Below are positions 12,474 to 30,364 of a stretch of 64,000 bases of DNA, piece after piece. The position numbers were made by a program, and so were the translations under genes. The DNA comes from Bacillota bacterium (GTDB lineage Bacteria; Bacillota; UBA5301), in NCBI GenBank assembly GCA_012735535.1, contig JAAYHC010000068.1, forward strand, positions 62,282 through 126,281, in the 5' to 3' direction. The notes under the pieces are model-generated. The model was not told the origin of the DNA, searched no databases, and worked only from the letters and a program-made list of their open reading frames with translations. How positions within the stretch are numbered: the stretch's first letter is position 1; each line of letters begins with the position of its first letter.

Positions 12474-14150
12474 TTACGCCGTTTCGGACTGGCGATCCGT
12501 TGTCTCTTCAGCAACAAGTTGATTGGCTATTTCACGTAGTTTGTACTTCTGAATCTTCCCGGAGGTGGTCATCGGAAACTCGGTCACAAACCGGAGATAC
12601 CGCGGCACTTTGTGCCGGGAGATGCGTTTACGCAAATACTCGAGTATCTCCTCTTCAACCGCCTCTACATCAGGTTTCAGCTTCACAAAAGCGAAAACTT
12701 CTTCCCCGTAAACCTGGCTCTGCACGCCGACCACCTGTGCCTCCGAAACTTTCGGGTGCTTGTGCAGATATTCCTCAACCTCGCGCGGGTAAATGTTTTC
12801 GCCGCCACGGATAATCATATCTTTGATCCGTCCAACGATCTGGTAATACCCGTTTTCATCAACACAAGCCAGATCACCGGTATGCAGCCAACCCTCTTCA
12901 TCAATAGCCGCAGCCGTTGCCTGGGGGTCTTTATAATAACCTTTCATTACATGATAGCCACGTGTGCATAATTCGCCAGGCTGACCTGGTCCAAGCTCAC
13001 GACCGGTTTCGGGATCGATGATCTTAACTTCAACGTGAGGCATAGCTCTACCAACCGTGGATACTCGTAGTTCTACCGGGTCGGTGGTATCGGTCATCGT
13101 AATTGCCGGCGAGGCCTCTGTCTGACCATAGGTGATCGTAATCTCACGCGCTCCCATCCGTTCCATAACCTCACGCATTACCTCTTCAGGGCAAGGCGAT
13201 CCGGCCATAATACCGGTGCGAAGCGTGGATAACTTAGTCTTGGCAAAGTTGGGGTGTTCGAGCATGGTGATAAACATGGTCGGAACCCCGTGCACAGCGG
13301 TGCAACGTTCCTGTTCAATTACTTCTAACGTCCGCCGTGGGCTGAAATGATCGAGGGCTACGATCGTACTGCCATGCGTCACGCAAGCCATGATACCAAG
13401 TACGCAACCAAAACAATGGAAAAAGGGTACCGGAATACACAAACGATCCCAGGCGGTCAATTTCATCTTTTCGCCAATCTGAAATCCGTTATTAACGATA
13501 TTATGGTGAGTTAGCATCACGCCCTTGGGGAAACCGGTCGTTCCTGAAGTGTACTGGATGTTGACAACGTCATCCCAGCTCAGCTCCGCTTCGCGCGCGG
13601 CCAACTCGCGATCCGAGATCTTGCTGGCTAAGCTCAGAAAATCAGCCCATTTGAGCATACCGACAGCTGGCTGGTCGCCGATTTTAATCACGCGTTTCAG
13701 CTTAGGCAGAGCAGCACTCTGCAAATTGCCCGGTTGGCAAGAGAGCAGTTCCGGACAGAGTTCAGTCACCGTTTGCACATAATTAACGTCTTTGAAGCCA
13801 TCAATGACAAATAATGTGGTCACATCGGCCTGTCTGAGCAAATACTCCAGCTCAAACAATTTGTAGTTGGTGTTAATGGTAACCAAGACCGCGCCCATCA
13901 TTGCTGTCGCAAACTGGAGTTCCAGCCACTCCGGAACATTCGTCGACCAGACGGCAACATGATCCCCTTTTTCTACTCCCACGGCCATTAAAGCCTTGGC
14001 TACTACGCGACAGCGCTGTTCAAACTCGCGATAAGTCCACCGCACCCCCTGGTCCGGAAAAACGGCGGCCTCATTATCGGGAAACTCCGCGCAGATTCGG
14101 CTCAACATTCCGCCAATAGTACAGTCCATCAGCTCTACATCTCTACTCAC
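12474..14150 (-). CDS. AMP-dependent synthetase/ligase (acyl-CoA synthetase family)
   Basis: 558 aa with the IQYTSGTTGFPKGV AMP-binding motif. GTG start at 14150 with AGGAGG upstream; an alternative ATG lies at 14129. Confidence 0.85.
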   Translation of the reverse strand: MSRDVELMDCTIGGMLSRICAEFPDNEAAVFPDQGVRWTYREFEQRCRVVAKALMAVGVEKGDHVAVWSTNVPEWLELQFATAMMGAVLVTINTNYKLFELEYLLRQADVTTLFVIDGFKDVNYVQTVTELCPELLSCQPGNLQSAALPKLKRVIKIGDQPAVGMLKWADFLSLASKISDRELAAREAELSWDDVVNIQYTSGTTGFPKGVMLTHHNIVNNGFQIGEKMKLTAWDRLCIPVPFFHCFGCVLGIMACVTHGSTIVALDHFSPRRTLEVIEQERCTAVHGVPTMFITMLEHPNFAKTKLSTLRTGIMAGSPCPEEVMREVMERMGAREITITYGQTEASPAITMTDTTDPVELRVSTVGRAMPHVEVKIIDPETGRELGPGQPGELCTRGYHVMKGYYKDPQATAAAIDEEGWLHTGDLACVDENGYYQIVGRIKDMIIRGGENIYPREVEEYLHKHPKVSEAQVVGVQSQVYGEEVFAFVKLKPDVEAVEEEILEYLRKRISRHKVPRYLRFVTEFPMTTSGKIQKYKLREIANQLVAEETTDRQSETA

Positions 14151-14301: not shown

Positions 14302-14339
14302 ATAAAAAACGGACCTTTCGCTAGAGACGAAAAGGTCCG
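14302..14339 (-). terminator. intrinsic terminator, expression platform of the putative T-box leader
   Basis: An 11-bp bulged stem (cggacctttcg / cgaaaaggtccg, minus-strand sense) followed by TTTTTTAT on the minus strand. Confidence 0.75.
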
Positions 14340-14540
14340 TGGTACCACTCTAATTAGCCATAACAATGGCTCACTCTTGCTCCAGATATCGGTGGAAACC
14401 GGTTAGCTCTACTTGCTGAGTTTCAAGCTACTGCTCCAGGGGGAGTTCACCTAGCAGCCGAGGCTGTCTCGCAGCAACCGACAGCTCTCTGTACTCGACA
14501 CCTCTAAGTTACTGATCCCTATCATCGCCTCGAACTTATA
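14340..14540 (-). promoter_or_regulatory. putative T-box riboswitch leader (tRNA-sensing antitermination element)
   Basis: Minus-strand sequence AATTAGAGTGGTACCACGG matches the T-box consensus AAUUAGGGUGGNACCGCGG and runs directly into the 5' arm of the terminator. Upstream are a GGCGATGA (GA/K-turn-like) element and a CAGAGAG element, as in Stem I. Confidence 0.6.
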
Positions 14541-14545
14541 CGGTT

Positions 14546-15082
14546 TTAAGATGTCTTCGATGTTACCGACCTTGGACGCCGTGCCAAGTTCTGACTAAAC
14601 TGCACTACCGGTTGGAGAACGGCGATACCAATGGCGTTTATTGCAATCGCCGGGATAACAACGGTAATATAAAGAGCGCTAAAGCTACCCGGCAAGCCAA
14701 CAATCAGAGCCGCAGAACCCAAAAAGACCAATCCGCTTAAAGCGGTGCCGACAATTGTAATAATCTCCGCCCGGACAATCGGCGACAAAGAAGCGGGCAA
14801 AGAACGTAAAATCAAATAAACAATGCTGGCGGTAACTGCTTTATCGATGATGTTCGGCAACTGGCCTCCCGGAAAAGTAGAGGTAATTGCAGCCAACACC
14901 CCACCCAACAAGCCGGTGACCAGTACCATTTTATAATCATCATGTTTGAGCAACAGAGCGATAAACATCATCAGCAGAAGTGTATCGGGTTTCATCCCAA
15001 ATAACAGCGGGGGGGTGATGAAATGTAAAATATACCCGATAGCCAATAACAACGCAACCTGAATACCATCACGAACTTGCAT
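14546..15082 (-). CDS. small polytopic membrane transporter, TrpP-like / ECF S-component-like
   Basis: 178 aa, 5-6 predicted TM helices, conserved ...FPGGQLPNIIDK... block. Confidence 0.5.
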   Translation of the reverse strand: MQVRDGIQVALLLAIGYILHFITPPLLFGMKPDTLLLMMFIALLLKHDDYKMVLVTGLLGGVLAAITSTFPGGQLPNIIDKAVTASIVYLILRSLPASLSPIVRAEIITIVGTALSGLVFLGSAALIVGLPGSFSALYITVVIPAIAINAIGIAVLQPVVQFSQNLARRPRSVTSKTS

Positions 15083-15149: not shown

Positions 15150-15178
15150 AGTATATCACATCGGTTCCAATCTGACAA
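15150..15178 (-). promoter_or_regulatory. sigma-A-type promoter for the TrpP-like gene
   Basis: Minus-strand TTGTCA, 17 nt, TATACT. Overlaps the stop codon of the upstream gene. Followed by an RBS AGGAGTGG. Confidence 0.5.
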
Positions 15179-16607
15179 TAATTAATTGTTTAGCTTTTTC
15201 CTCCCTATCTTGGTTGATACTAAACTTTTGAGCAGGGTTGACATACTGGATCGCCGGAGCCTCGGCCGGAGTTAATACAGCTTGCCACAAGTCCGGGGCG
15301 ACAAGTTTCTCAGTCGCGGCGTTTTCGTAGTCACGTTTAGAGAAAAAATCTTCACGATGCGTAACTGCTTCCAGCTCGACCACCAAACGCTGGCGAGCAC
15401 TTAATTTATCAGCTAGTTCACGGGCAACTTCAGTGCCACGGCTCTCCTGACACAGGGTAAAGACCCTGTTGTTGGCCTCACCCAGCTGGGCTTGCAAACC
15501 TTGTGGCGACGCCTTCTGCCAAGCCTTCGTATAACGATCTAAACGATAGTCCAGCTCAGCGCGGATTCGATCAGCCTCTTGTTGGGCGTAATATTTCCTG
15601 AGCAGTTCGGCCTCATCAGTACCGGCCAAATGTTTTTTCAGTTCTTTCTTGGTCCGACGTAAGTCAGTTTTAGCGTCCAGCAGTTGATCTTGACAATCAA
15701 AGTACTGATCGGCTCCGGCTTTATTTTTCCGGTACCAGACTGCGGCAAAAGCCAAGAGACCGACGCCAACAATCGCTGAGCCAATCAACAGTTCGCCCAG
15801 ATGAAAACCTAGATACCAGCCGATTACTGTGAGAATGAGCAGACTCAGACCTAGCCAAAACATGGAAAGTGCACGGCGATAGCCGTCGTACTCGGGCATC
15901 AGTGCGGCAATTTTACTGTTCAAATCCGCTATTTGCTCCTCGAACCGGTTAATTCGTTCTTTTATTTCTTCAAGTTCCGCGATATATTCCGGCTTAACCG
16001 GGGAGCCAATTATACCTTGCACCGAAGCGGCAAATTTTTCCGTTTGTTCCTGGACTTGACAGACTTTGGCCCATAATAACCGGCGCATCCCGTTAATATG
16101 CGCGATTTCTCGCTGCAAGGCGCAAACGTTGTCCACCTCTTGCCGTAGGTTTTCAACAGCCTCACCGGTCAAGGCGGTGATCGCTTCTTCCATGGCAGCG
16201 AGTTTGCTCAAAAAACCAGTCGCGGTTTGGGTAGGCTCGCCTTGATTTAGCACCAACAGATTGTGCAACTGAGCCGGCGATGTGACACCCCACTTGCTGG
16301 CGATCAGATGGGCTAAATCGGTGATCGTCTCCGGAAGCCGTCCGTCCTGTGACAGGTGTTCCCCCTCAGCATCCAGGCGATACACCCAGGTTGTTTCATC
16401 AGATTCGACAAACTTCAAGGTGACAAAGTCTTCCGGTTGCAGGGTCAAACTCTCCGGTGCAAATACAACCTTGGTGAACAGAGCAAAGTCTTCTGTGCCG
16501 AGCTCCAGCGGTTTATCCGGCGAAAGTTCAAACCTCGCCCTGCTGTTTTCAAGCTGATATTGAAAACAAACCAACTTCAATTTACCCCACCACCCACAGT
16601 ACTTCAT
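15156..16607 (-). CDS. hypothetical coiled-coil membrane protein (two central TM helices), third gene of the SNF2 operon
   Basis: 483 aa with long heptad-like charged stretches (EELEEIKERINRFEEQIADLNSKIAAL; KTDLRRTKKELKKHL) flanking a hydrophobic hairpin (LSMFWLGLSLLILTVIGWYLGFHLGELLIGSAIVGVGLLAFAAVWY). Confidence 0.6.
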   Translation of the reverse strand: MKYCGWWGKLKLVCFQYQLENSRARFELSPDKPLELGTEDFALFTKVVFAPESLTLQPEDFVTLKFVESDETTWVYRLDAEGEHLSQDGRLPETITDLAHLIASKWGVTSPAQLHNLLVLNQGEPTQTATGFLSKLAAMEEAITALTGEAVENLRQEVDNVCALQREIAHINGMRRLLWAKVCQVQEQTEKFAASVQGIIGSPVKPEYIAELEEIKERINRFEEQIADLNSKIAALMPEYDGYRRALSMFWLGLSLLILTVIGWYLGFHLGELLIGSAIVGVGLLAFAAVWYRKNKAGADQYFDCQDQLLDAKTDLRRTKKELKKHLAGTDEAELLRKYYAQQEADRIRAELDYRLDRYTKAWQKASPQGLQAQLGEANNRVFTLCQESRGTEVARELADKLSARQRLVVELEAVTHREDFFSKRDYENAATEKLVAPDLWQAVLTPAEAPAIQYVNPAQKFSINQDREEKAKQLIIVRLEPM

Positions 16608-16624
16608 CCATTTCTATTTATCGT

Positions 16625-18010
16625 TCAATCGAGAATTTCCTCTCCTGACAGAAGGTTCACACAACAGGGACAGACTGCAGGGCCACAACGGCAGCACAAA
16701 AGGCAATCCGTACTGCTCGTCGCAGACGGCAACAGACAGGAATACCGGCAGTACTGGCAAATTTTCTGCCCACATCCGGGACAAACGGCGGCTGGAAACA
16801 TGGTAGGCTGCCCGCACACTTCACAGACCTCAGCGCATCTGGAACATAACAGCCCTGCCTCAGAAGTTATCATCAGGTCATAAGTTGGGCGCTCACACCT
16901 CTGACACTGTAGGTCCAGCCAAGCATCAGCACAAAAATCGTACACCAGTCTAATCCTTTCGCACTCGTTCAACCGGCTTTCTACGGTGAACACAGCTCGC
17001 GGTAGGTACACGCGGGCTGCAGAAACAAGAGTGACCAGTGCCTGCGGAGTGTATTTCCTCCTTAGCTCATGCAGACGCTTACTTTTTTCCCTGGCTAACA
17101 TTTGCCCGTACCGACTGCAGCGATCTTTTTCGTACTGGATTTGTTGTCGATAATCCTCTAGTCGACTATTGAAAAGCTCCCTGGTTTGCGCCGTTTTGGC
17201 CAGGGCGACCCGGACTTCGAGTACGGCTGCTTTGTGCAATAACTCGTATAAACGTTTCATTTCTTCGCGTAACAAAGTATCGTAATACTCGTCCAAGACT
17301 TGCTCTTCGCATTTAAGCCGAGCCAATTGTTCTTTTTCAAAGGCAGAAAAAGACTCTAAAATCCAGCGGTGGAGGAAAAGGCAGGCTTGCCGATAAAGCT
17401 GGAAAGTCCGGTAATCTGTCTCACGGAACCAGCTCAAGTTGGCTAAATGCGTGTCGAGTAAACTTCCTTTCTCTTTATAGAGTCGAGGGTATCTCCTCCG
17501 GTCCGGCAAGGGACGAAAGCCCTCCGGTAAACTGCACAGCCCCTTCGGCAGCTCCCAGATTTCCACTTGATCAGTTTCCGGATCGGCCGCCAGACTGATG
17601 AGCAAATCTTTACGCAGATCGGCAAGCAAAGACAGGCGAAAGAGAAAAACCAGCTTGGCATGGTAGATTATCGTCGGTTGCCGGGCTATAAGATGGACAC
17701 CTTTCACCGGTATGCGCGCCAGCTTCTCTCGAAAAACTGCGTAGTCTTTCGCCGATAAAGGATAAATTAGATTGGCGGCCCAACCTTGGCTCCGGGCGGA
17801 ACTGATCAAACGGTCCAGTACCGGGTGGCCGTAGGTGATAAACTCGGCCGAATCAGCGCCGATCAGGTCAGGCTGATGAGTATACGTCACCGGCTCACCG
17901 TCGAACCAAAAGCGGAAGACATTTTCGCCAATCCTCTCGCGTTCGATGCCCTGATAGTGACAGAATAATTCGATGAACCGGGCAACATCCGAACAACCTG
18001 TACCACTCAT
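16625..18010 (-). CDS. hypothetical protein with a C-terminal cluster of CxxC zinc-ribbon motifs
   Basis: 461 aa. The C-terminus carries CQRC, CSRC, CEVC, CPGC, CQYC, CLLCCRC and CPCC. 4-nt ATGA overlap with the helicase gene. Confidence 0.6.
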   Translation of the reverse strand: MSGTGCSDVARFIELFCHYQGIERERIGENVFRFWFDGEPVTYTHQPDLIGADSAEFITYGHPVLDRLISSARSQGWAANLIYPLSAKDYAVFREKLARIPVKGVHLIARQPTIIYHAKLVFLFRLSLLADLRKDLLISLAADPETDQVEIWELPKGLCSLPEGFRPLPDRRRYPRLYKEKGSLLDTHLANLSWFRETDYRTFQLYRQACLFLHRWILESFSAFEKEQLARLKCEEQVLDEYYDTLLREEMKRLYELLHKAAVLEVRVALAKTAQTRELFNSRLEDYRQQIQYEKDRCSRYGQMLAREKSKRLHELRRKYTPQALVTLVSAARVYLPRAVFTVESRLNECERIRLVYDFCADAWLDLQCQRCERPTYDLMITSEAGLLCSRCAEVCEVCGQPTMFPAAVCPGCGQKICQYCRYSCLLPSATSSTDCLLCCRCGPAVCPCCVNLLSGEEILD

Positions 18011-19761
18011 GAACCTACCCCCAACAAACCATCGGTAAATGACTGCAACTCCCGATACTCTGAGATGCGGCGGACTATCTGGTCGACGATATCATCACCT
18101 TCTTTGGCCCCACTGTCGGCCACCCCGAAAAACCGGTCGGCAATCTGCTTCTCCAGACTCAAGCCGCCGGCCGCAATAATGGCCTCAACGTCCCCAACCA
18201 CATCCGAAAAAAGGCGCAGCTTTTCGTCTAATAATTGTAAGACATATTCCTCAATGGTATTGGCTGCAATGAGGTTAATTATCTGCACATCATGCTGTTG
18301 CCCGAGGCGGTGCAGGCGTCCGATTCTTTGCTCAACGCGCATCGGATTCCAGGGCAAGTCATAGTTAACCAGGACATGGCAGAACTGCAAGTTGCGCCCC
18401 TCCCCACCAGACTCGGTGCTAATCATGATCTGGCTCCGTTGACGAAAATTGGCCACGGCAGCATCTTTTTCCGCCAAAGATAAACCGCCGTGAAAAATCG
18501 TAGTGTTAAAACCTTCCGCCTCCAGCCTTTGGGCCAGATAGTCTTGGGTTCGCCGAAACTCGGTAAAGACCAGTATTTTCGTTCCCATCTTGCGCGCAAT
18601 TTTAAGGAGCTGCGTAAGCTTAGCAAAGTCGTTTAGTTCGCTGCCAATGCTAATCGCCCGTTGGATGGCGGCTCGTTCGGCAGCTGGTAAGTCCCTTTCT
18701 CTGACGAGCAACTGTTCTAACGAGGCCACCGCAGCTTGCGGGGAACTACATACTTCCCGCGCCATGACAATTAAGGGCAGAATCGTCTGGCGCTTCTGGT
18801 TGCGCTGTCGGTAAACTGCGCGCAAACCACTCACCGCAGCCGCCATAAATTCTCGCTCCCCGACGGTTGGCTGGACGACTTGCGTACTCACCACGCGCTT
18901 GGGCAGCTTGAGCAGCGTTTCGCGTCGATTTGACCGCACCATCACCTGGCCAAGTAAGTTTTTTAGCTTTTCTACGTTTTTCGGCGTCCGCTTATCCAGG
19001 ACAAACTCTTGTTTGAATTCACGGAAGGTTTTGAGTTGTCCCGGTTTGAGCAAAGTGATGAGGTTATACAATTCCCGTAGATCGTTCTGGACCGGCGTCG
19101 CAGTGAGCAGCAATAAAAATGTCTTTTGTAGCCCGTTAACAAACTGCCAGTTCACCGTCGATTTATTCTTTAACTTATGGGCCTCATCAACCACGACGAG
19201 GTCATACCGGTTTTGCAACAACTTGCTGCGCTGAGGTTCTCTTTTGGCATAGTCAATTGAGACCAGTAACAGGTCTTCCTGCCAGGAAACAGAGCCATCT
19301 TGAACTTTAAACGGAATTTTCAACCTATTGACCAGTTCTTCGTACCACTGGGTAACCAATGAGGCCGGCACGAGGAGCAAGATCCGTTTGACCAAGGAGC
19401 GCAGTAAATACTCTTTCATAATTATTCCGGCCTCAATCGTTTTACCCAAACCGACCTCATCGGCCAAGACCGCGCGTCCCCGCAGCTCTCTGAGCACCTT
19501 TAGGACGGTCGCTTGCTGATGTGGGTAGAGGACTATTTCCGGTAATGCTTCCAAAGCCAAAAGCCGGTCAAAACCGGTTTGCAGTGAAAGTTTGTTTGCG
19601 GCTTGATTGAGTAAATAATGCCCGATTGAGGAGTATTCCTGCCAGACCAATTTGGCCAAGACCCGATTATTAACTTCGTTGAAATATATCTCCATTGCTG
19701 ACTTCCTCCAGGGGTAGTTTCCCCTGTTTAGCTGGGAAGATTCGGTTCGCGAAGATTCCAA
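18007..19761 (-). CDS. SNF2-family ATPase/helicase, minimal core (SNF2_N plus Helicase_C)
   Basis: Motifs LADEVGLGKT, VVVDEAHKLKN, LLLTATPVQN, STESGGEGRNLQ, QRIGRLHRLGQ. The track ORF starts with TTG at 19761. The ATG at 19695 (MEIYFNE), with a GGAGG 9 nt upstream, is the likelier start. Confidence 0.9.
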   Translation of the reverse strand: MESSRTESSQLNRGNYPWRKSAMEIYFNEVNNRVLAKLVWQEYSSIGHYLLNQAANKLSLQTGFDRLLALEALPEIVLYPHQQATVLKVLRELRGRAVLADEVGLGKTIEAGIIMKEYLLRSLVKRILLLVPASLVTQWYEELVNRLKIPFKVQDGSVSWQEDLLLVSIDYAKREPQRSKLLQNRYDLVVVDEAHKLKNKSTVNWQFVNGLQKTFLLLLTATPVQNDLRELYNLITLLKPGQLKTFREFKQEFVLDKRTPKNVEKLKNLLGQVMVRSNRRETLLKLPKRVVSTQVVQPTVGEREFMAAAVSGLRAVYRQRNQKRQTILPLIVMAREVCSSPQAAVASLEQLLVRERDLPAAERAAIQRAISIGSELNDFAKLTQLLKIARKMGTKILVFTEFRRTQDYLAQRLEAEGFNTTIFHGGLSLAEKDAAVANFRQRSQIMISTESGGEGRNLQFCHVLVNYDLPWNPMRVEQRIGRLHRLGQQHDVQIINLIAANTIEEYVLQLLDEKLRLFSDVVGDVEAIIAAGGLSLEKQIADRFFGVADSGAKEGDDIVDQIVRRISEYRELQSFTDGLLGVGS

Positions 19762-24990: not shown

Positions 24991-25018
24991 CAAAAAAAAG
25001 CCGCTCAAAGAGCGGCTT
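24991..25018 (-). terminator. rho-independent terminator downstream of the sat-like gene
   Basis: Hairpin aagccgctc / gagcggctt followed, on the minus strand, by a run of 8 T. Confidence 0.85.
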
Positions 25019-25038
25019 TAGTGCGATTAATTGCTAAA

Positions 25039-26778
25039 CTATAGTGCGGCTTCAGCCGGTTCGTCCGCCTCGGTTTCCGGCTCCTCGACATCTTTGTCGG
25101 CCCCGCGATAGCGGTAGTACGGAAGCGGGTTCCAGGTCCGGTACTGGATCTGTTTGGCATGCAGCGGCCGCGGAATATCGTTGAGCAATTCCTGGGCGAC
25201 CTCAAGTTCACGTTTAGCCTCCGCTTTGTCTTGGTACATGAACTCATCAGAGGCTTTTTCCGGAGCTCCTTCGACCTTCTCGATTAGGTCTTGAATTACC
25301 ATATGCTGCTGGCCGGCCATCAGCTCACGGGCATCGGTTACCCACTGCGGCTGGAGATCGCGATTGGAATCGGAAACATAGCAGAATTCCGCATAGGTTT
25401 CCGCGTAGATGCGATCGGCGTTCTGGCGCGCATCAAGCATCGCGGCCTCCAAATCGCGGTTGGTCAATTCAGCCGGATCGAGCGGCTTGTAGCGATAACG
25501 GCCACCTAACCGGGTAGCTGTGAGATAGAAGGGGAAAATTCCTTTAATCGTCTTGCCGACCGGATAGATGGAGTTGCCATCGGCATCCACACCTTTGGGC
25601 TGAATACCTTGCATCGCAATACGGCTGGACTCAGGACGGCAGATCTCCTTCGGTGGCATCATGCCGCGCCGCAACAGCTCTCTAATGCCGGTACCGGAAA
25701 TGGAAATTCTGAACCGCTCATCATGCGGGCAGGTCTTGACAGTAGCGAGCGAATCGCAGCGAGTGCAGTAGAAAACCTCGTGATACAAGCGAACTTGGAT
25801 ACCTAACTCTTCAGGGGTGAACTCATCAAAAATCGTATGGCAGGCGTACTTGTCGTAATAATCGCCTACACCGGCATGGTCACGGCCGATGAGAGCGTGG
25901 GTACAACCGTAATTCTTCATAATCAAGACGTGCAGTACGGCTTCGCGCGGCCCGGCGAAAATATAGGTTACCCGGAGCGGCGCCAGGGTCACTTGGCCCT
26001 TGGGATAATAGGTATCCAAGATGGCGCGATAAGCGAGAATACGGAACTCGTTACGAGTATACTCTCTCTTCGCCATCTCGACCAAAGGTTGGATGAGCAA
26101 GCCGTCAATGGTTTCGAGGGCATTCTTGTGGATGTACTCATGCCCGCGGTGTACAGGGTTGGCCCCGGTGATAAAACCGCCGACCGATTTATATTTCTTT
26201 TCCTCATAGAACAGATGCCAGGTATCTTTGGGCTCTAAGCGGAGCTTTTCAAAAGGACCCCAGTTGACCCGGCGCAACAGACGAATCGGACCGCCTAAAG
26301 AGATGTCGCCCATCCGTCTGAAGATCGCGTCAACACCCGGATGGTTTCGGTCGGTAGTACCGAACAAGCACTTGGCCCGTTCCTCCTTGTTGTACTTAAA
26401 GATGTCCTGAACCTCTAAGATGGCGATAGGCTCTTTATCCTCGTTGATGATCGCGACTTCCGAACCAACCGACAGTGACTTGATCACTTCGCTATTGCGC
26501 TGCCCTGCCGGCGCGAAGCTGAGCGGGGTCGGCCAGATCAGGCCGTTCTGCAGCCTACCGGAATACAAAACAGATTTATAATCTGCTTCATTCATAAACC
26601 CTTCGTTTGGAGAGAGAACACCGGTGGCGATCATCTCGATAGTAATCGCCGCTTCCTGATCAACCATAATTTTGGGCAATGATTGGGCCTTCTCCAATTC
26701 CCCGGCTAATTGATCTTCAGGGACAACCCGGTTTACTAATTTGCCACCATGTGGCTGTTGCGGATATTTAGAAAACAT
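25039..26778 (-). CDS. ATP sulfurylase (sulfate adenylyltransferase) family protein, divergent, with a long acidic C-terminal extension
   Basis: 579 aa with an N-terminal HGGKLVNRVV and GRDHAGVGDYY motif. The expected QTRN motif reads ITGAN (FITGANPVHRGHE). About 180 extra C-terminal residues end in EEPETEADEPAEAAL, with no P-loop. Confidence 0.7.
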   Translation of the reverse strand: MFSKYPQQPHGGKLVNRVVPEDQLAGELEKAQSLPKIMVDQEAAITIEMIATGVLSPNEGFMNEADYKSVLYSGRLQNGLIWPTPLSFAPAGQRNSEVIKSLSVGSEVAIINEDKEPIAILEVQDIFKYNKEERAKCLFGTTDRNHPGVDAIFRRMGDISLGGPIRLLRRVNWGPFEKLRLEPKDTWHLFYEEKKYKSVGGFITGANPVHRGHEYIHKNALETIDGLLIQPLVEMAKREYTRNEFRILAYRAILDTYYPKGQVTLAPLRVTYIFAGPREAVLHVLIMKNYGCTHALIGRDHAGVGDYYDKYACHTIFDEFTPEELGIQVRLYHEVFYCTRCDSLATVKTCPHDERFRISISGTGIRELLRRGMMPPKEICRPESSRIAMQGIQPKGVDADGNSIYPVGKTIKGIFPFYLTATRLGGRYRYKPLDPAELTNRDLEAAMLDARQNADRIYAETYAEFCYVSDSNRDLQPQWVTDARELMAGQQHMVIQDLIEKVEGAPEKASDEFMYQDKAEAKRELEVAQELLNDIPRPLHAKQIQYRTWNPLPYYRYRGADKDVEEPETEADEPAEAAL

Positions 26779-26896
26779 TAGATTACTCCCTCCTCAAAAA
26801 TCCTTACAAGTGTCCTAATTTAAGTCTAGAAAATACAGGCAAATCAGGCAAAGAAAAACGTTTGAACGGTCAAAAACAAGCGCTTAACTGTTGAAT

Positions 26897-28111
26897 TTAC
26901 GACTTGAACTGCTTGCCGGCTGCCAACCGCATCGTTTGAAACGGTCGGAAGCTCAGCCAGGCGACCAAAGATGCCAGACCATAGAACCAGAGTGCCGCCA
27001 TATAGCTGCCCGTGTGCGTAAAGACCATAGAGATCAGCATCGGACCCAGTACGCCGGCTACGCCATAGGCGGAAAAGACCAGAGCGTAATTACGACCTAA
27101 ACGAGCATCACCAAAATACTTGCTGGTCAAGGCAGGCATCAGCGCCAAAATGCCGCCAAAGCAGAAAGCTGCTGTCAATAGACCTATGCTTAGCAACCAG
27201 CGGTTTGCTGCCAACTGTAGTACGACTAACAAATCTAAGGTAAACAAGGCGAAGATTAAAGCGAGCGTTCTGTCGTATCCATATTTATCGGCAACATAGC
27301 CCCACAGCAAGCGGCCTAAACCGTTGGTCAGCGCCAGCAAACCAACAATACTGGCGGCTTCGACGACAGAGAGACCTGCCAATTCTTGGGCCAGGGGAGC
27401 AGCTTGGGAAATAACCATCAATCCGGCACCAGCCCCGACCAAAAAGTACAGCCATAAGCGCCAGAACCTTCCTGTTTGCCAGATCGGCTGCTCGGCTTCA
27501 CCTCCGGCAACCTTTTGGGCTGAAATTGGCCGTGGTAGCGACAAGAGCTGAGCCGATCCCGAAACTACTAATAAGAAAATTGCTCCAACCAAGGTTAAGG
27601 TTCGATTAACCCCATAGAGCCCGATCAAATAAGTAGCCGTAGGCGCAAGGACCAATGGACCGGCTCCAAAGCCGAAGACGCCCAATCCGCTCATCAAGGC
27701 TTTGCGTTCCGGAAACCACTGCACCAAGGTACTGATCGGAGCGACGTAACCAAAACCGATGCCGGCTCCGGCCATGACTCCATAGGCCAAGTAAAAGCCT
27801 AGTAAGCTCCGGGTCAGTCCGGCCCAGATCAAGCCGCAGCCTAACAATAATCCGCCGATAGTGGCTGTTAAGCGCGGGCCTTTCCGGTCTTGCAATCGGC
27901 CGGCTACATTCATGAAGATGGTGAATGAAGCCAGGCAGATGGTAAAGGCCAAAGAAACCTGGTTTAAAGACCAGCCCATGGTTTCGCGCAAGGGATTAAC
28001 AAAAACGCTAAAAGCATAGACGGTACCCAGACAAACCTGGATTAATACGGCTGCAACTACAAGCAACTTCTTTTTCAGTTTGTTCTCGTGCTTCTCCATG
28101 CTTTCACACAT
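26897..28111 (-). CDS. MFS transporter, oxalate/formate antiporter (OFA) family
   Basis: 404 aa, 12 TM. The N-terminus (VVAAVLIQVCLGTVYAFSVF) is typical of OFA members. Confidence 0.7.
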   Translation of the reverse strand: MCESMEKHENKLKKKLLVVAAVLIQVCLGTVYAFSVFVNPLRETMGWSLNQVSLAFTICLASFTIFMNVAGRLQDRKGPRLTATIGGLLLGCGLIWAGLTRSLLGFYLAYGVMAGAGIGFGYVAPISTLVQWFPERKALMSGLGVFGFGAGPLVLAPTATYLIGLYGVNRTLTLVGAIFLLVVSGSAQLLSLPRPISAQKVAGGEAEQPIWQTGRFWRLWLYFLVGAGAGLMVISQAAPLAQELAGLSVVEAASIVGLLALTNGLGRLLWGYVADKYGYDRTLALIFALFTLDLLVVLQLAANRWLLSIGLLTAAFCFGGILALMPALTSKYFGDARLGRNYALVFSAYGVAGVLGPMLISMVFTHTGSYMAALWFYGLASLVAWLSFRPFQTMRLAAGKQFKS

Positions 28112-28296
28112 CCTTTCGACAGGTGTTTACCAGAAATTATAGCTAAGTTCACGCACAAGTGGTCTCAATTTTCAATCAATTGCCGAATTTTGGGGTTCAT
28201 TGGTCTAAATACCGGTTTGAGCTGCCTAGCCGAGGGCAGGAATCTGCTCACGCGTAGCGGAATATACATTTTACTTCAGCAAGGGGGTTTCGAGAA

Positions 28297-29652
28297 TTGC
28301 TCCGACGAAACTTATTAATCTTACTCGCGCTATCAATCGGACAATTGAGCAGCTTACTGCTCTTTGGCATAGAGTTGATCACGGCCATCAAAATCTTGGC
28401 GGTCCTGGTCGGTTTAAACGCGTTAGCCATATACGCGGTAAATAAACCCCGGACTCGAGTAAAGAGTGATGCCGTTAGCCTGACACGCCAGGCGGCTTCC
28501 GGCGAGAGTTCGTTGGAAGCCGGCAAAACACTGCAGATAGCCTGCGCTACCTTGCCGTTTCTACGCCAAGGTCTCAATCGGCTGACCGCCCAAAAAATTG
28601 CCGAAATTATCAAGCAAATTAGCGATGTGGCTGCCGTTGCCATTACCGACCGAGAGCACGTGCTCTCGTTTATTGGCGCCGGCTGTGAGATGCATCGTCC
28701 GGGCGACAAAATCCTCACGGAAGCAACGAAAAAATGTATCTCTACCGGAACGACCCAGATTATTAGTAGTCAACGCGAGCTAAACTGCCCTCGCGCAGAC
28801 CACTGTGACTGCCCGCTCGACGGGGCGGTTATTGTGCCGCTGAAATGTCGCTCCGAAGTAGTAGGTGCCTTGAAATTATATGAGAATAAAGCCGGCGGCC
28901 CCCCGGAATATACAGTCCGGTTAGCCGAAGGTTTGGGCCAACTACTGAACATGCAGATTGAACTAGCCGAACTCGATCGGCAGACCCAGCTGACCACTAA
29001 AGCCGAACTTGATGCCTTGAGAGCCCAAATTAACCCTCATTTTCTCTTTAACACCCTGAATACGATCATTATGTTTAGTCGGGTTGAGCCGGCCAAGGCC
29101 CGCGAAATGCTTATCAAGTTATCTGATTTCTTTCGCCTGGCCCTCAAAAAGCCGGGGCATTTCCATACCTTCGCCGATGAGCTGGCGTTTGTCCAGAGTT
29201 ATTTGTACCTTGAAGAACATCGTTTCAAAGATCGCCTCAAGATTACCTATGACATCAGTCCGGAGGTTAAGGATCTCCCATTTCCCGAACTGACCCTCCA
29301 GCCCCTGGTTGAAAATGCAATCAGGCATGGTCTTTCGCCAAAAGTTGGTTCGGGCCATCTGCGGATTAGTGCAAGGGTCAAAGAGAATCTGCTGGAAGTA
29401 GAAGTAGCTGATGACGGTGTTGGAATGGATGAAAAAACCAAGGCTGAAGCACTAATCTCCGGGCAAGGCTCCGGCTTCGGAGTAGGGCTCAGCAATGTCT
29501 ATGAACGCCTCAAACGGTTATACGGTCAGGAGCTAACCTTTGTGATCGACTCGGCTCCGAAAGCAGGTACGCGCATTAAAATCAGTTTTCCTTGGAATAA
29601 AGCACGGATCGGAGGTATGATCAGTGAAATTACGGGCCCTAATTCTCGATGA
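28297..29652 (+). CDS. sensor histidine kinase, LytS/YpdA-like catalytic core (GAF plus His_kinase plus HATPase) with two N-terminal TM helices
   Basis: QINPHFLFNTL H-box, a GAF-like middle region, and a C-terminal ATPase with a G-box. Confidence 0.8.
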   Translation: MLRRNLLILLALSIGQLSSLLLFGIELITAIKILAVLVGLNALAIYAVNKPRTRVKSDAVSLTRQAASGESSLEAGKTLQIACATLPFLRQGLNRLTAQKIAEIIKQISDVAAVAITDREHVLSFIGAGCEMHRPGDKILTEATKKCISTGTTQIISSQRELNCPRADHCDCPLDGAVIVPLKCRSEVVGALKLYENKAGGPPEYTVRLAEGLGQLLNMQIELAELDRQTQLTTKAELDALRAQINPHFLFNTLNTIIMFSRVEPAKAREMLIKLSDFFRLALKKPGHFHTFADELAFVQSYLYLEEHRFKDRLKITYDISPEVKDLPFPELTLQPLVENAIRHGLSPKVGSGHLRISARVKENLLEVEVADDGVGMDEKTKAEALISGQGSGFGVGLSNVYERLKRLYGQELTFVIDSAPKAGTRIKISFPWNKARIGGMISEITGPNSR

Positions 29653-30364
29653 CGAATATCCGGCCCGCGCTGAATTGCGGTATCTATTATCGAAGACCAA
29701 GACGAAAGTGGAAGTCGTTGGTGAAGCTACCCATGCTGAGGAAGCCCTGCAGCTCTTGCGGGCAATCCCCTATGATTTGGTCTTTCTTGATATTGAACTG
29801 CCAGGTTTAGATGGGATCGCACTGGCTGAAGAGATCAGGCAGCTGAAAAAACCGCCGGTGATCATCTTTGTCACGGCCTATGAACAGTACGCACTCAAGG
29901 CATTTGACGTCAACGCGGTTGATTACTTGCTCAAACCGGTCAGCGAAGAACGCTTGGAAAAGGCCTTGAGTAAAATCACCAAGCAGCTAGCAGAAAGTGA
30001 GCCTCCCGCTGCGGAATACGCCACACTGCCTAAGCTGGTGGCCGAGCGCAAAGGGAAAACAGTGCTGATCAACCCGAATGAGGTATATTTCGCGGTTGTG
30101 AAAGACAATACCGTGCTGCTTAAATTATACAATGAGCTCTTGATTACCAGATATACGCTTAAAGAGCTGGAAGATAAGCTGCAGGCGCTCGGAACCAACT
30201 TCTTTCGAGCCCACCGCGGCCACCTGGTCAACCTGGAGCACGTCAAAGAAATTATCTCGTATATAAACGGGGCCTACTCTCTGATTATGGCGGATGAAGC
30301 CCAAACGGAAATCCCGGTCAGTCGTGGACAGTCCAAACGACTACGCGAGCTGTTAAAACTCTAG
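29624..30364 (+). CDS. LytR/AlgR-family response regulator (REC plus LytTR DNA-binding domain)
   Basis: ILDDE ... FLDIELPGLDG receiver domain and a C-terminal LytTR domain (FFRAHRGHLVNL). Confidence 0.85.
   Translation: MKLRALILDDEYPARAELRYLLSKTKTKVEVVGEATHAEEALQLLRAIPYDLVFLDIELPGLDGIALAEEIRQLKKPPVIIFVTAYEQYALKAFDVNAVDYLLKPVSEERLEKALSKITKQLAESEPPAAEYATLPKLVAERKGKTVLINPNEVYFAVVKDNTVLLKLYNELLITRYTLKELEDKLQALGTNFFRAHRGHLVNLEHVKEIISYINGAYSLIMADEAQTEIPVSRGQSKRLRELLKL

Follow-up and report, generated by a model that had tools for sequence, protein, structure and literature searches.

Two kinds of described ATP sulfurylase (sulfate adenylyltransferase, Sat) are the main points of comparison for the gene treated here. 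The zinc-binding homodimeric enzymes of Thermus thermophilus (PDB entry 1V47) and Methanothermococcus thermolithotrophicus (8A8D) are 350–385 aa in length and consist of a PUA-like N-terminal domain, a catalytic domain and a zinc-ribbon domain III, a domain type described in PMC10322725; they are encoded together with adenosine 5′-phosphosulfate (APS) kinase or other cys genes, and sulfate activation has been shown (PMC10322725). The fungal and Aquifex enzymes (P. chrysogenum 1I2D, yeast 1G8F, A. aeolicus 2GKS) have a core plus an additional C-terminal domain of ~170–200 aa with the P-loop APS-kinase fold. The extra domain of the fungal enzymes serves oligomerization and allosteric control. 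The 64-kb stretch of Bacillota DNA analysed here (the window) encodes a Sat-like protein of 579 aa which has the same domain layout as the zinc-binding enzymes and shares their HxxH and GRDHAG motifs, but these enzymes have no C-terminal extension and show the full QTRN motif and PxxGxxKxxD loop, unlike the window protein. The window protein resembles the fungal and Aquifex enzymes in carrying an extra C-terminal domain, but this domain is modelled as a helical hairpin and has no Walker A motif. Judged by its sequence, the gene belongs to a ‘long Sat’ group of homo-oligomeric ATP sulfurylases, a subfamily not described before, and within it to the first of two clades, clade A. Loci and proteins of relatives are referred to below by L-numbers (e.g. 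L004) and P-numbers, respectively.

The four Sat motifs and the roles of their residues have been summarized (PMC6607087). Gln195 hydrogen-bonds the sulfate of APS, Arg197 makes many contacts with the sulfate and the α-phosphate, and Thr196, Asn198, His204 and Arg290 handle phosphates and pyrophosphate (PPi) (PMC6607087). The window protein was aligned by MAFFT with sequences that included the Sat of a canonical Bacillus cysH-cysP-sat-cysC operon, and by HMMER with three solved Sat enzymes (8a8d, 1v47 and 2gks). The canonical F-Q-T-R-N-P-x-H-R-A-H aligns with F-I-T-G-A-N-P-V-H-R-G-H. The QXRN motif therefore reads I-T-(G)A-N: Thr and Asn are kept, but other residues stand in place of Gln and Arg, such that the protein is without both sulfate-anchoring side chains. 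An initial annotation of this DNA had pointed to the string ITGANPVHRGH, which is present at aa 203–213, and had named misregistration as one way in which its reading could fail. The register holds in all of the alignments (FQT-RN to FITGAN, with Arg lost and one residue inserted), and the substitutions are invariant, with FITGANP[LVM]HRGH found in 120 of 120 relatives. The gene and its parts are located in the window as follows.

25039..26778, − strand: long-form Sat-like gene, clade A, 579 aa plus stop codon (open reading frame call; Pfam PUA_2 and ATP-sulfurylase)
26272..26757, − strand: PUA-like N-terminal domain, aa 8–169 (PF14306, PUA_2, E = 4.8e-44)
25615..26247, − strand: ATP-sulfurylase catalytic domain, aa 178–388 (PF01747, E = 3.4e-68)
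26140..26175, − strand: altered QXRN/HXXH region FITGANPVHRGH, aa 202–213 (Gln to Ile, Gly insertion, Arg to Ala; Thr, Asn and both His kept)
26059..26088, − strand: remodelled active-site loop PLVEMAKREY, aa 231–240 (from the alignment)
25855..25887, − strand: retained GRDHAG motif, GRDHAGVGDYY, aa 298–308 (from the alignment)
25723–25767, − strand: zinc-ribbon Cys3His residues C338, C341, C350 and H352, inside the catalytic domain (Cys and His invariant in the family)
25108..25590, − strand: family-specific C-terminal extension, aa 397–557 (AlphaFold2 models and invariant residues)
25042..25107, − strand: disordered, variable acidic tail, aa 558–579 (predicted local distance difference test score, pLDDT, < 50; varies among relatives)
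24997..25019, − strand: intrinsic terminator after the Sat-like gene (10-bp stem with 6 G-C pairs, 3-nt loop, T-run)

The remaining motifs are in large part retained. HXXH is present as H210-R-G-H213 and is invariant in the family, and VGRDHAG reads IGRDHAG (aa 297–303), of which GRDHAG is invariant. The region of the PFR motif reads VRLYHE, and PFR is also unconserved in the zinc-type canonical enzymes compared. The loop PxxGxxKxxD has become PLVEMAKREY, with Gly changed to Glu, Asp to Tyr, and new basic residues at K237 and R238; two more changes at positions that are invariant in canonical enzymes are MRL to GRL and RYAGP to IFAGP. C338, C341, C350 and H352 align with the zinc ligands of 8a8d and 1v47 and are invariant, and they are predicted to form a zinc ribbon. 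The pattern of degenerate Sat pseudo-domains, where HxxH and GRD are lost, is not seen here, as HxxH, Asn, Thr and GRDHAG do not vary. Across the ~200 sequences of both clades that were compared (120 from clade A and about 70 from clade B), conservation of Thr, Asn, both His and GRDHAG is absolute. The fold markers that were first noticed by eye, HGGKLVNRVV (aa 10–19) and GRDHAGVGDYY, are present as described.

Fold and family models place the protein among the ATP sulfurylases. The AlphaFold2 model of the full protein has a pLDDT of 82.5 and a TM-score of 0.90 normalized to 8a8d, and the closest solved structures by HMMER are the zinc-binding Sat enzymes 8a8d and 1v47 (E = 3.5e-77, ~35% identity). 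The NCBIfam subfamily model for sulfate adenylyltransferase, NF003166, is just passed (400 bits, cutoff 387), and the Sat equivalog model TIGR00339 is failed (302.8 bits, cutoff 322.95). The model for the bifunctional Sat/APS kinase matches aa 6–395 only. A motif scan found no Walker A motif anywhere in the 579 aa, and aa 397–579 have no Pfam or NCBIfam match at E ≤ 1. The claim of about 180 C-terminal residues that lack an APS-kinase P-loop is thus borne out.

On the matches examined, the extension is found only in this Sat-like architecture among the 1.84e9 representative proteins that were searched. An exhaustive HMMER search with aa 397–579 returned 55 proteins, and the seven of these that were examined at full length (one full-length and six mid-length) are all pieces of the same architecture. 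AlphaFold2 modelling of the isolated extension (pLDDT 81.9) agrees with the full-protein model: an ordered linker is followed by a long antiparallel helical hairpin (~440–469 and 478–504), two shorter helices and the disordered tail. This is not an APS-kinase fold, and structure comparisons gave no specific fold match to the extension and no alignment beyond ~400 columns. Residues R429, D442, R451, Y458, R473, K501, R547 and W549/N550 are invariant in clades A and B, and conservation continues up to WNPLPYxRYRG(S/D)DE in relatives. Beyond this point is the acidic tail, whose string EEPETEADEPAEAAL lies at aa 565–579; it is real, with 9 acidic residues against 2 basic ones among the last 22, but in the model it is disordered, and its sequence varies between relatives. 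At the same position some archaeal members of clade B have a TusA domain. In nine clade B proteins the extension is followed immediately, at the C-terminus, by a TusA domain that has the LDxxGExCPxP cysteine motif.

The gene had been called an orphan, which does not hold. At least 120 protein clusters of 566–603 aa were retrieved in the first homologue search; they are 70–82% identical over the full length and come from many Bacillales genera and from metagenome-assembled genomes (MAGs). The long Sat family is present in 257 of ~185,600 species genomes (one genome per species). It is found mostly in Bacillales, but members with ~70% identity are also present in Bacteroidota (Arenibacter), in Betaproteobacteria (Paenalcaligenes) and in a MAG of the Halothiobacillaceae. 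The canonical Bacillus Sat has ~40% identity to the window protein at 67% query coverage; a search with this canonical enzyme for co-occurrence at the genus level gave matches dominated by near-identical B. velezensis entries. The window protein shows the clade A signatures, i.e. FITGANPxHRGH, the loop PLVE[MLI]AK[RH]EY, and a helical extension of ~160 aa that ends in WNxLPYxRYRG.

A search with the divergent member P0131 uncovered clade B, which reads FQTANPxHRGH, has the loop PxVETTR[RK]AY, and is found in Acidobacteriota, Hydrothermarchaeales, Methanosarcinales and others. Arg to Ala, HRGH, the loop changes and the extension are common to both clades. Representatives such as the Hydrothermarchaeota ‘sat’, P0227 and P0242 share the extension, the loss of Arg, HRGH, and the Gly to Glu and Asp to Tyr loop changes with the window protein at 54% core identity, but they differ in that Gln is kept (FQTAN), there is no Gly insertion, the genes are in sulfur-type operons, and some are fused to TusA. 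What sets clade A apart from clade B is Gln to Ile, the Gly insertion, and recruitment to monocarboxylate-uptake loci. Over the core, clade A members are 78% identical to one another and clade B members 66%; the figure is 54% between the two clades and 38–40% to canonical Sat. In a neighbour-joining tree A, B and A + B are each monophyletic. The extension and the loss of Arg are shared by the whole long Sat lineage, so that one of the outcomes named in advance as refuting the initial reading, an extension common to bona fide dissimilatory Sat, holds in part. Within the reach of the literature searched, we found no publication that describes this long-form subfamily or its division into two clades, and none on fusions with TusA or on the link to acetate loci.

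Two sequences were set aside. P0238, on a 2.2-kb Joint Genome Institute contig, has canonical motifs together with the extension and would appear to be an intermediate. Its N-terminal two-thirds is a Bacillus-type Sat (FQTRNPVHRAH, PLVGETKGDD), joined in the GRDHAG region to a C-terminus of the clade B kind, almost the same as that of P0131, and we judge it a probable assembly chimera. A clade A copy on a 16.7-kb plasmid of Phaeobacter inhibens (L086 6278–8158, NZ_CP081281.1; 68% identity) is unannotated and frameshifted, being split into four frames; it represents either a pseudogene or sequencing errors and was dropped as evidence.

The genomic contexts of the two clades differ. In three archaeal genomes clade B genes are in tight operons, which encode an AprA-like flavoprotein, a small Fer4 protein, the Sat-like protein with or without TusA, one or more NIR_SIR sulfite-reductase-like proteins, and FrhB. 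By their gene content these operons look like a compact F420-linked sulfate/sulfite pathway that uses an arginine-less Sat. The operons are located at L088 7973–14674, L092 7971–14370 and L094 6792–12762, and have one or two small NIR_SIR proteins. A metabolic reconstruction of Hydrothermarchaeota reports sat beside APS reductase in the MAG JdFR-18 (PMC6775978), and this sat is probably a clade B gene.

Bacterial clade B genes are found in a different kind of sulfur locus. In one of two such loci (L097 8001–14460 and L098 2445–6802) the gene is followed by genes for TauE, a JAB protease, ThiS, two PALP enzymes, ThiS and ThiF, and in the other it overlaps a PALP gene next to ThiF. On gene content, these are CysO/CysM-type clusters for thiocarboxylate-dependent Cys/Met biosynthesis. 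One Acidobacteriota context shows no informative neighbours. Sulfate-assimilation partners are present in five of six sampled clade B contexts, as opposed to none of 82 clade A loci. The presence of clade B in sulfur operons makes the loss of Arg, the altered loop and the extension compatible with sulfur-oxyanion chemistry, and the missing Arg alone is therefore not evidence of non-sulfate chemistry.

The clade A contexts were searched by tblastn in 82 loci (±10 kb each) and in the whole window. No CysH, CysP, CysC, AprB, NIR_SIR, FrhB, TauE, JAB, ThiS or ThiF homologue was found in any of these loci or in the window, in agreement with the earlier statement that no apr, cys or APS-kinase genes are nearby; a weak AprA-like match is seen in L062 only. 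An Rfam search showed no SAM/S-box or other sulfur-responsive leader in ten of ten clade A loci, but the canonical cysH-cysP-sat-cysC control carries a SAM/S-box. Upstream of the Sat-like gene in the window there is no Rfam riboswitch or leader.

Genes for monocarboxylate uptake are found instead, and by gene neighbourhood clade A is linked to them in at least four architectures and two phyla. Neighbour clustering showed a co-directional block, DUF485-SSS-HK-RR-DUF485-SSS-SatL, in 18 of 80 species loci from about ten Bacillaceae genera, where HK is a LytS-type histidine kinase, RR a LytTR response regulator (BtsR/LytR-like models were matched in L042), DUF485 a small protein, SSS a symporter, and SatL the Sat-like gene. 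The symporter resembles MctC/ActP (635 bits, cutoff 670). The gaps between symporter and Sat-like gene are 50–90 nt, non-coding, and terminator-free in seven loci, and the block co-evolves as a unit. In a second arrangement, which includes the window, L008, L010 and L039, a major facilitator superfamily (MFS) transporter of the SfMCT type adjoins the Sat-like gene. The closest relative, L004, is 82% identical and syntenic and has acs (acetate-CoA ligase) in place of the MFS gene, behind a conserved promoter. In Paenalcaligenes sp. (L083 1549–11689) DUF485-ActP is followed by a 232-aa gene, a 1,144-aa CrbS-like hybrid kinase with SLC5, PAS, HisKA and REC domains, a cNMP/CBS/DUF294 nucleotidyltransferase, and then the long Sat; judging from its gene order, a clade A gene has here entered a proteobacterial neighbourhood of the acetate-switch type. 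In addition, a clade A sub-lineage with the loop PLVEMAKHEY ends mevalonate (acetyl-CoA) clusters (L100 512–9695 and L096 749–9695). L100 has the archaeal-type AcnX/UbiD/UbiX/IPK route, and an HD-domain gene is convergent downstream. The neighbours in Sporosarcina, the Lederbergia group and Arenibacter were rejected as functional clues; they are lineage-specific and unrelated, as in many other clade A loci.

These loci invite comparison with acs-yjcH-actP of E. coli and with the LytS/LytTR systems (BtsSR, YpdAB-yhjX) and CrbSR, with which they have in common a DUF485 (YjcH-like) protein, an ActP/MctC-like symporter or OFA-family MFS transporter, and a LytS/LytTR or CrbS-like regulator. The clade A Sat-like gene takes the position of the accompanying enzyme in the E. 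coli acetate operon. The E. coli enzyme is an ANL-family acetyl-CoA synthetase and does not have the Sat fold.

The features next to the Sat-like gene in the window are the following.

26779..26896, − strand: 118-nt gap upstream of the Sat-like gene, with a ribosome-binding site GAGGAGGGAG at 26786–26795
26897..28111, − strand: SfMCT-type L-lactate/monocarboxylate MFS transporter, directly upstream and co-directional (NF049980, 366.7 bits, cutoff 320)
28112..28296, no strand: divergent promoter region, of which the MFS-proximal part is conserved with the relative where acs replaces MFS
28297..29652, + strand: LytS-family (His_kinase/GAF) sensor kinase, divergent from the MFS/Sat-like pair (PF06580 and HATPase_c; clusters with the kinase of the ActP block)
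29624..30364, + strand: LytTR-type response regulator, BtsR/LytR-like (PF00072 and PF04397)

Some earlier views of this neighbourhood have to be revised. The gene does have its own terminator, as proposed, a strong one at 25019..24997 (−), 20 nt past the stop codon. It was also thought to be monocistronic, but probably is not: neither a consensus promoter nor a convincing terminator lies in the 118-nt gap after the upstream MFS gene. It is plausibly transcribed together with the MFS gene, as the gaps between transporter and Sat-like genes are short and terminator-free. The MFS neighbour had been described as of the oxalate/formate type; it passes the SfMCT model and fails that of the OxlT antiporter (165 bits, cutoff 335). 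The divergent promoter shares with L004 (7505–7750) a CAATTGA..GAAAA..ACCA block, TATAAT and GAAAGGATG. It also has the 10-nt repeats ATTTAGACCA and ATTGAGACCA, spaced 41 nt; the evidence is too weak to claim them as LytTR-type direct repeats.

Perhaps the clade A lineage encodes an active adenylyltransferase which serves acetate, pyruvate and lactate utilization and not sulfur assimilation; we regard the chances of this as evenly balanced. Catalytic competence is suggested because the residues that contact ATP and PPi are strictly retained, and the monocarboxylate role because the association recurs across at least four architectures and two phyla. With Thr and Asn of QXRN, HxxH and GRDHAG intact, ATP, its α-phosphate and PPi would be bound as in Sat, and the reaction would proceed by attack on the α-phosphate of ATP with release of PPi, or in reverse. 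The acceptor-anion pocket has, judging from the sequence, been rebuilt by the subfamily-wide loss of the QXRN Arg, the loop changes and, in clade A, an Ile for Gln beside an inserted Gly. Clade A has left the sulfur operons and S-box control, with clade B still in operons for sulfate/APS/sulfite assimilation; its genes lie beside, and are probably transcribed with, genes for monocarboxylate uptake under a two-component system of the LytS/LytTR pyruvate/acetate type. In the window this arrangement runs from HK/RR to the SfMCT-type MFS gene, the Sat-like gene and the terminator. The substrate step may be adenylylation of a non-sulfate anion, most plausibly a carboxylate, or an interconversion of adenylate and PPi. 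The C-terminal domain could function in oligomerization and/or provide conserved Arg and Lys residues that complete the active site.

By analogy, clade A proteins might be new carboxylate-activating adenylyltransferases (for acetate, pyruvate or lactate) on a Sat scaffold, co-expressed with ActP/MctC or SfMCT in an ‘acetate switch’. This narrower proposal we consider unlikely. The superfamily fold of the HIGH-motif nucleotidylyltransferases is common to all of these proteins, and PPAT, NMNAT and PanC appear as weaker fold matches. PanC (pantothenate synthetase) and the class I aminoacyl-tRNA synthetases show that the scaffold can adenylate carboxylates. They have no specific sequence relationship to the window protein, and serve here as a working analogy and not as an indication of membership. 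If the proposal is correct, members of the Sat family would have exchanged sulfate for an organic acid as acceptor, and would possibly be a non-homologous partner of, or substitute for, acetyl-CoA synthetase.

Several observations weigh against a changed acceptor. Clade B has the same Arg loss, loop and extension and yet sits in sulfur operons, so the rebuilt pocket can evidently handle a sulfur oxyanion, and clade A differs from it only by Gln to Ile and one Gly. The broader NCBIfam model for sulfate adenylyltransferase is passed (400 vs 387). A CysK-like gene is 4–8 kb away in 8 clade A loci, mostly of Sporosarcina. About three-quarters of clade A loci have no carboxylate genes nearby, and the 18 loci with the ActP block are all from Bacillaceae and may equal one evolutionary event. 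The initial annotation had suggested a neofunctionalized Sat paralog, and this fares unevenly: clade A is divorced from sulfur genes and from sulfur-responsive regulation, but the loss of Arg and the extension, on which the suggestion leaned, are common to the whole lineage including the sulfur-operon clade B. A changed role is still plausible because the QXRN substitutions are invariant and clade A stands apart from sulfur genes and their regulation.

Alternatively, the protein may be a genuine sulfate adenylyltransferase of an unusual subtype, in which the sulfate-binding positive charge has moved from QXRN to the remodelled loop (K237, R238, R242) or to the extension (R429, R451, R473), and the acetate neighbourhood may be incidental synteny. 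We hold this to be possible, though somewhat doubtful. The clade B clusters, with AprA-like, AprB-like, sulfite-reductase and FrhB genes or with ThiS/ThiF/JAB/PALP/TauE genes, speak for it, as do the fusions of some clade B members to TusA, the annotation of an archaeal clade B gene as sat (PMC6775978), the NF003166 score, the retention of all ATP/PPi residues, and the CysK-like gene near some Sporosarcina loci. However, clade A has also lost Gln195, the other sulfate-contacting side chain, and falls below the TIGR00339 equivalog cutoff. Its loci have no sulfate-assimilation partners (0 of 82, compared with 5 of 6 for clade B) and no S-box leader such as that of the canonical Bacillus operon, and the recurrence of the monocarboxylate link also speaks against this reading. 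Gln to Ile, the Gly insertion and the loss of the sulfur linkage make a changed acceptor or role somewhat likelier (about one half).

A pseudoenzyme is a further alternative, i.e. a non-catalytic nucleotide-binding regulator that senses ATP, AMP or APS and modulates the transporter or two-component system via its helical C-terminal domain. We think this improbable, and rank it least likely when set against a changed acceptor or role and a genuine Sat. Catalysis needs the pattern of Thr, Asn, HxxH and GRDHAG, which is kept in ~200 sequences, but binding alone does not, and clade B genes are in enzymatic operons with overlapping genes. It is true that both sulfate ligands are lost, that the helical hairpin could be a protein-interaction module, and that the gene adjoins sensors and transporters. 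The T. denitrificans APS kinase (PDB 3cr8) also appears among the fold matches, and its Sat-like domain, which we take to be inactive, would be a precedent. Another alternative is energy conservation from PPi, in which phosphate is used for sulfate (ADP + PPi ↔ ATP + Pi) and PPi from acetyl-CoA synthetase is recycled. Phosphate is isosteric with sulfate, and the reverse reaction of Sat makes ATP from adenylate and PPi. Sat has been called ATP-producing (PMC10839748), and the co-location with genes for Acs and acetate permeases would fit. But a phosphate pocket should be more polar and cationic, and clade A has put Ile, Gly and Ala in place of Gln and Arg; moreover, the idea has no known precedent in the Sat fold and is purely inferential, and we find it hardly credible.

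These distinctions bear on how sat genes are counted, as annotation and surveys of the sulfur cycle count every PF01747 match as ‘sat’. The subfamily described here is present in hundreds of species of Bacillota, Acidobacteriota, Bacteroidota, Pseudomonadota and archaea, is without the textbook sulfate-anchoring Arg, and has an uncharacterized domain. Should clade B be a true sulfurylase, the QXRN mechanism as now accepted does not hold for all Sat enzymes, and the TusA-fused Sat points to sulfate activation being coupled directly to sulfur-carrier chemistry. If the acceptor has changed in clade A, sat counts in Bacillota would overstate the capacity for sulfate assimilation, and a new enzyme of acetate/monocarboxylate metabolism would be at hand.

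Two further features of the window are of separate interest. The sole Rfam match in the window is an unrelated T-box leader (140.8 bits) at 14320–14534 (−), which lies between a gene for a TrpP tryptophan transporter and a gene for a 558-aa AMP-binding (ANL-family) enzyme. The flanking genes are at 14546–15082 (−) and 12474–14150 (−), and the ANL enzyme is an unusual T-box target. Open reading frames of 483 and 461 aa with no Pfam match (15156–16607 and 16625–18010, both −) are directly downstream of an SNF2/ResIII helicase gene (18007–19761, −). The trio of helicase and two reading frames is conserved in the syntenic MAG locus L004, and may represent a defence-like module.

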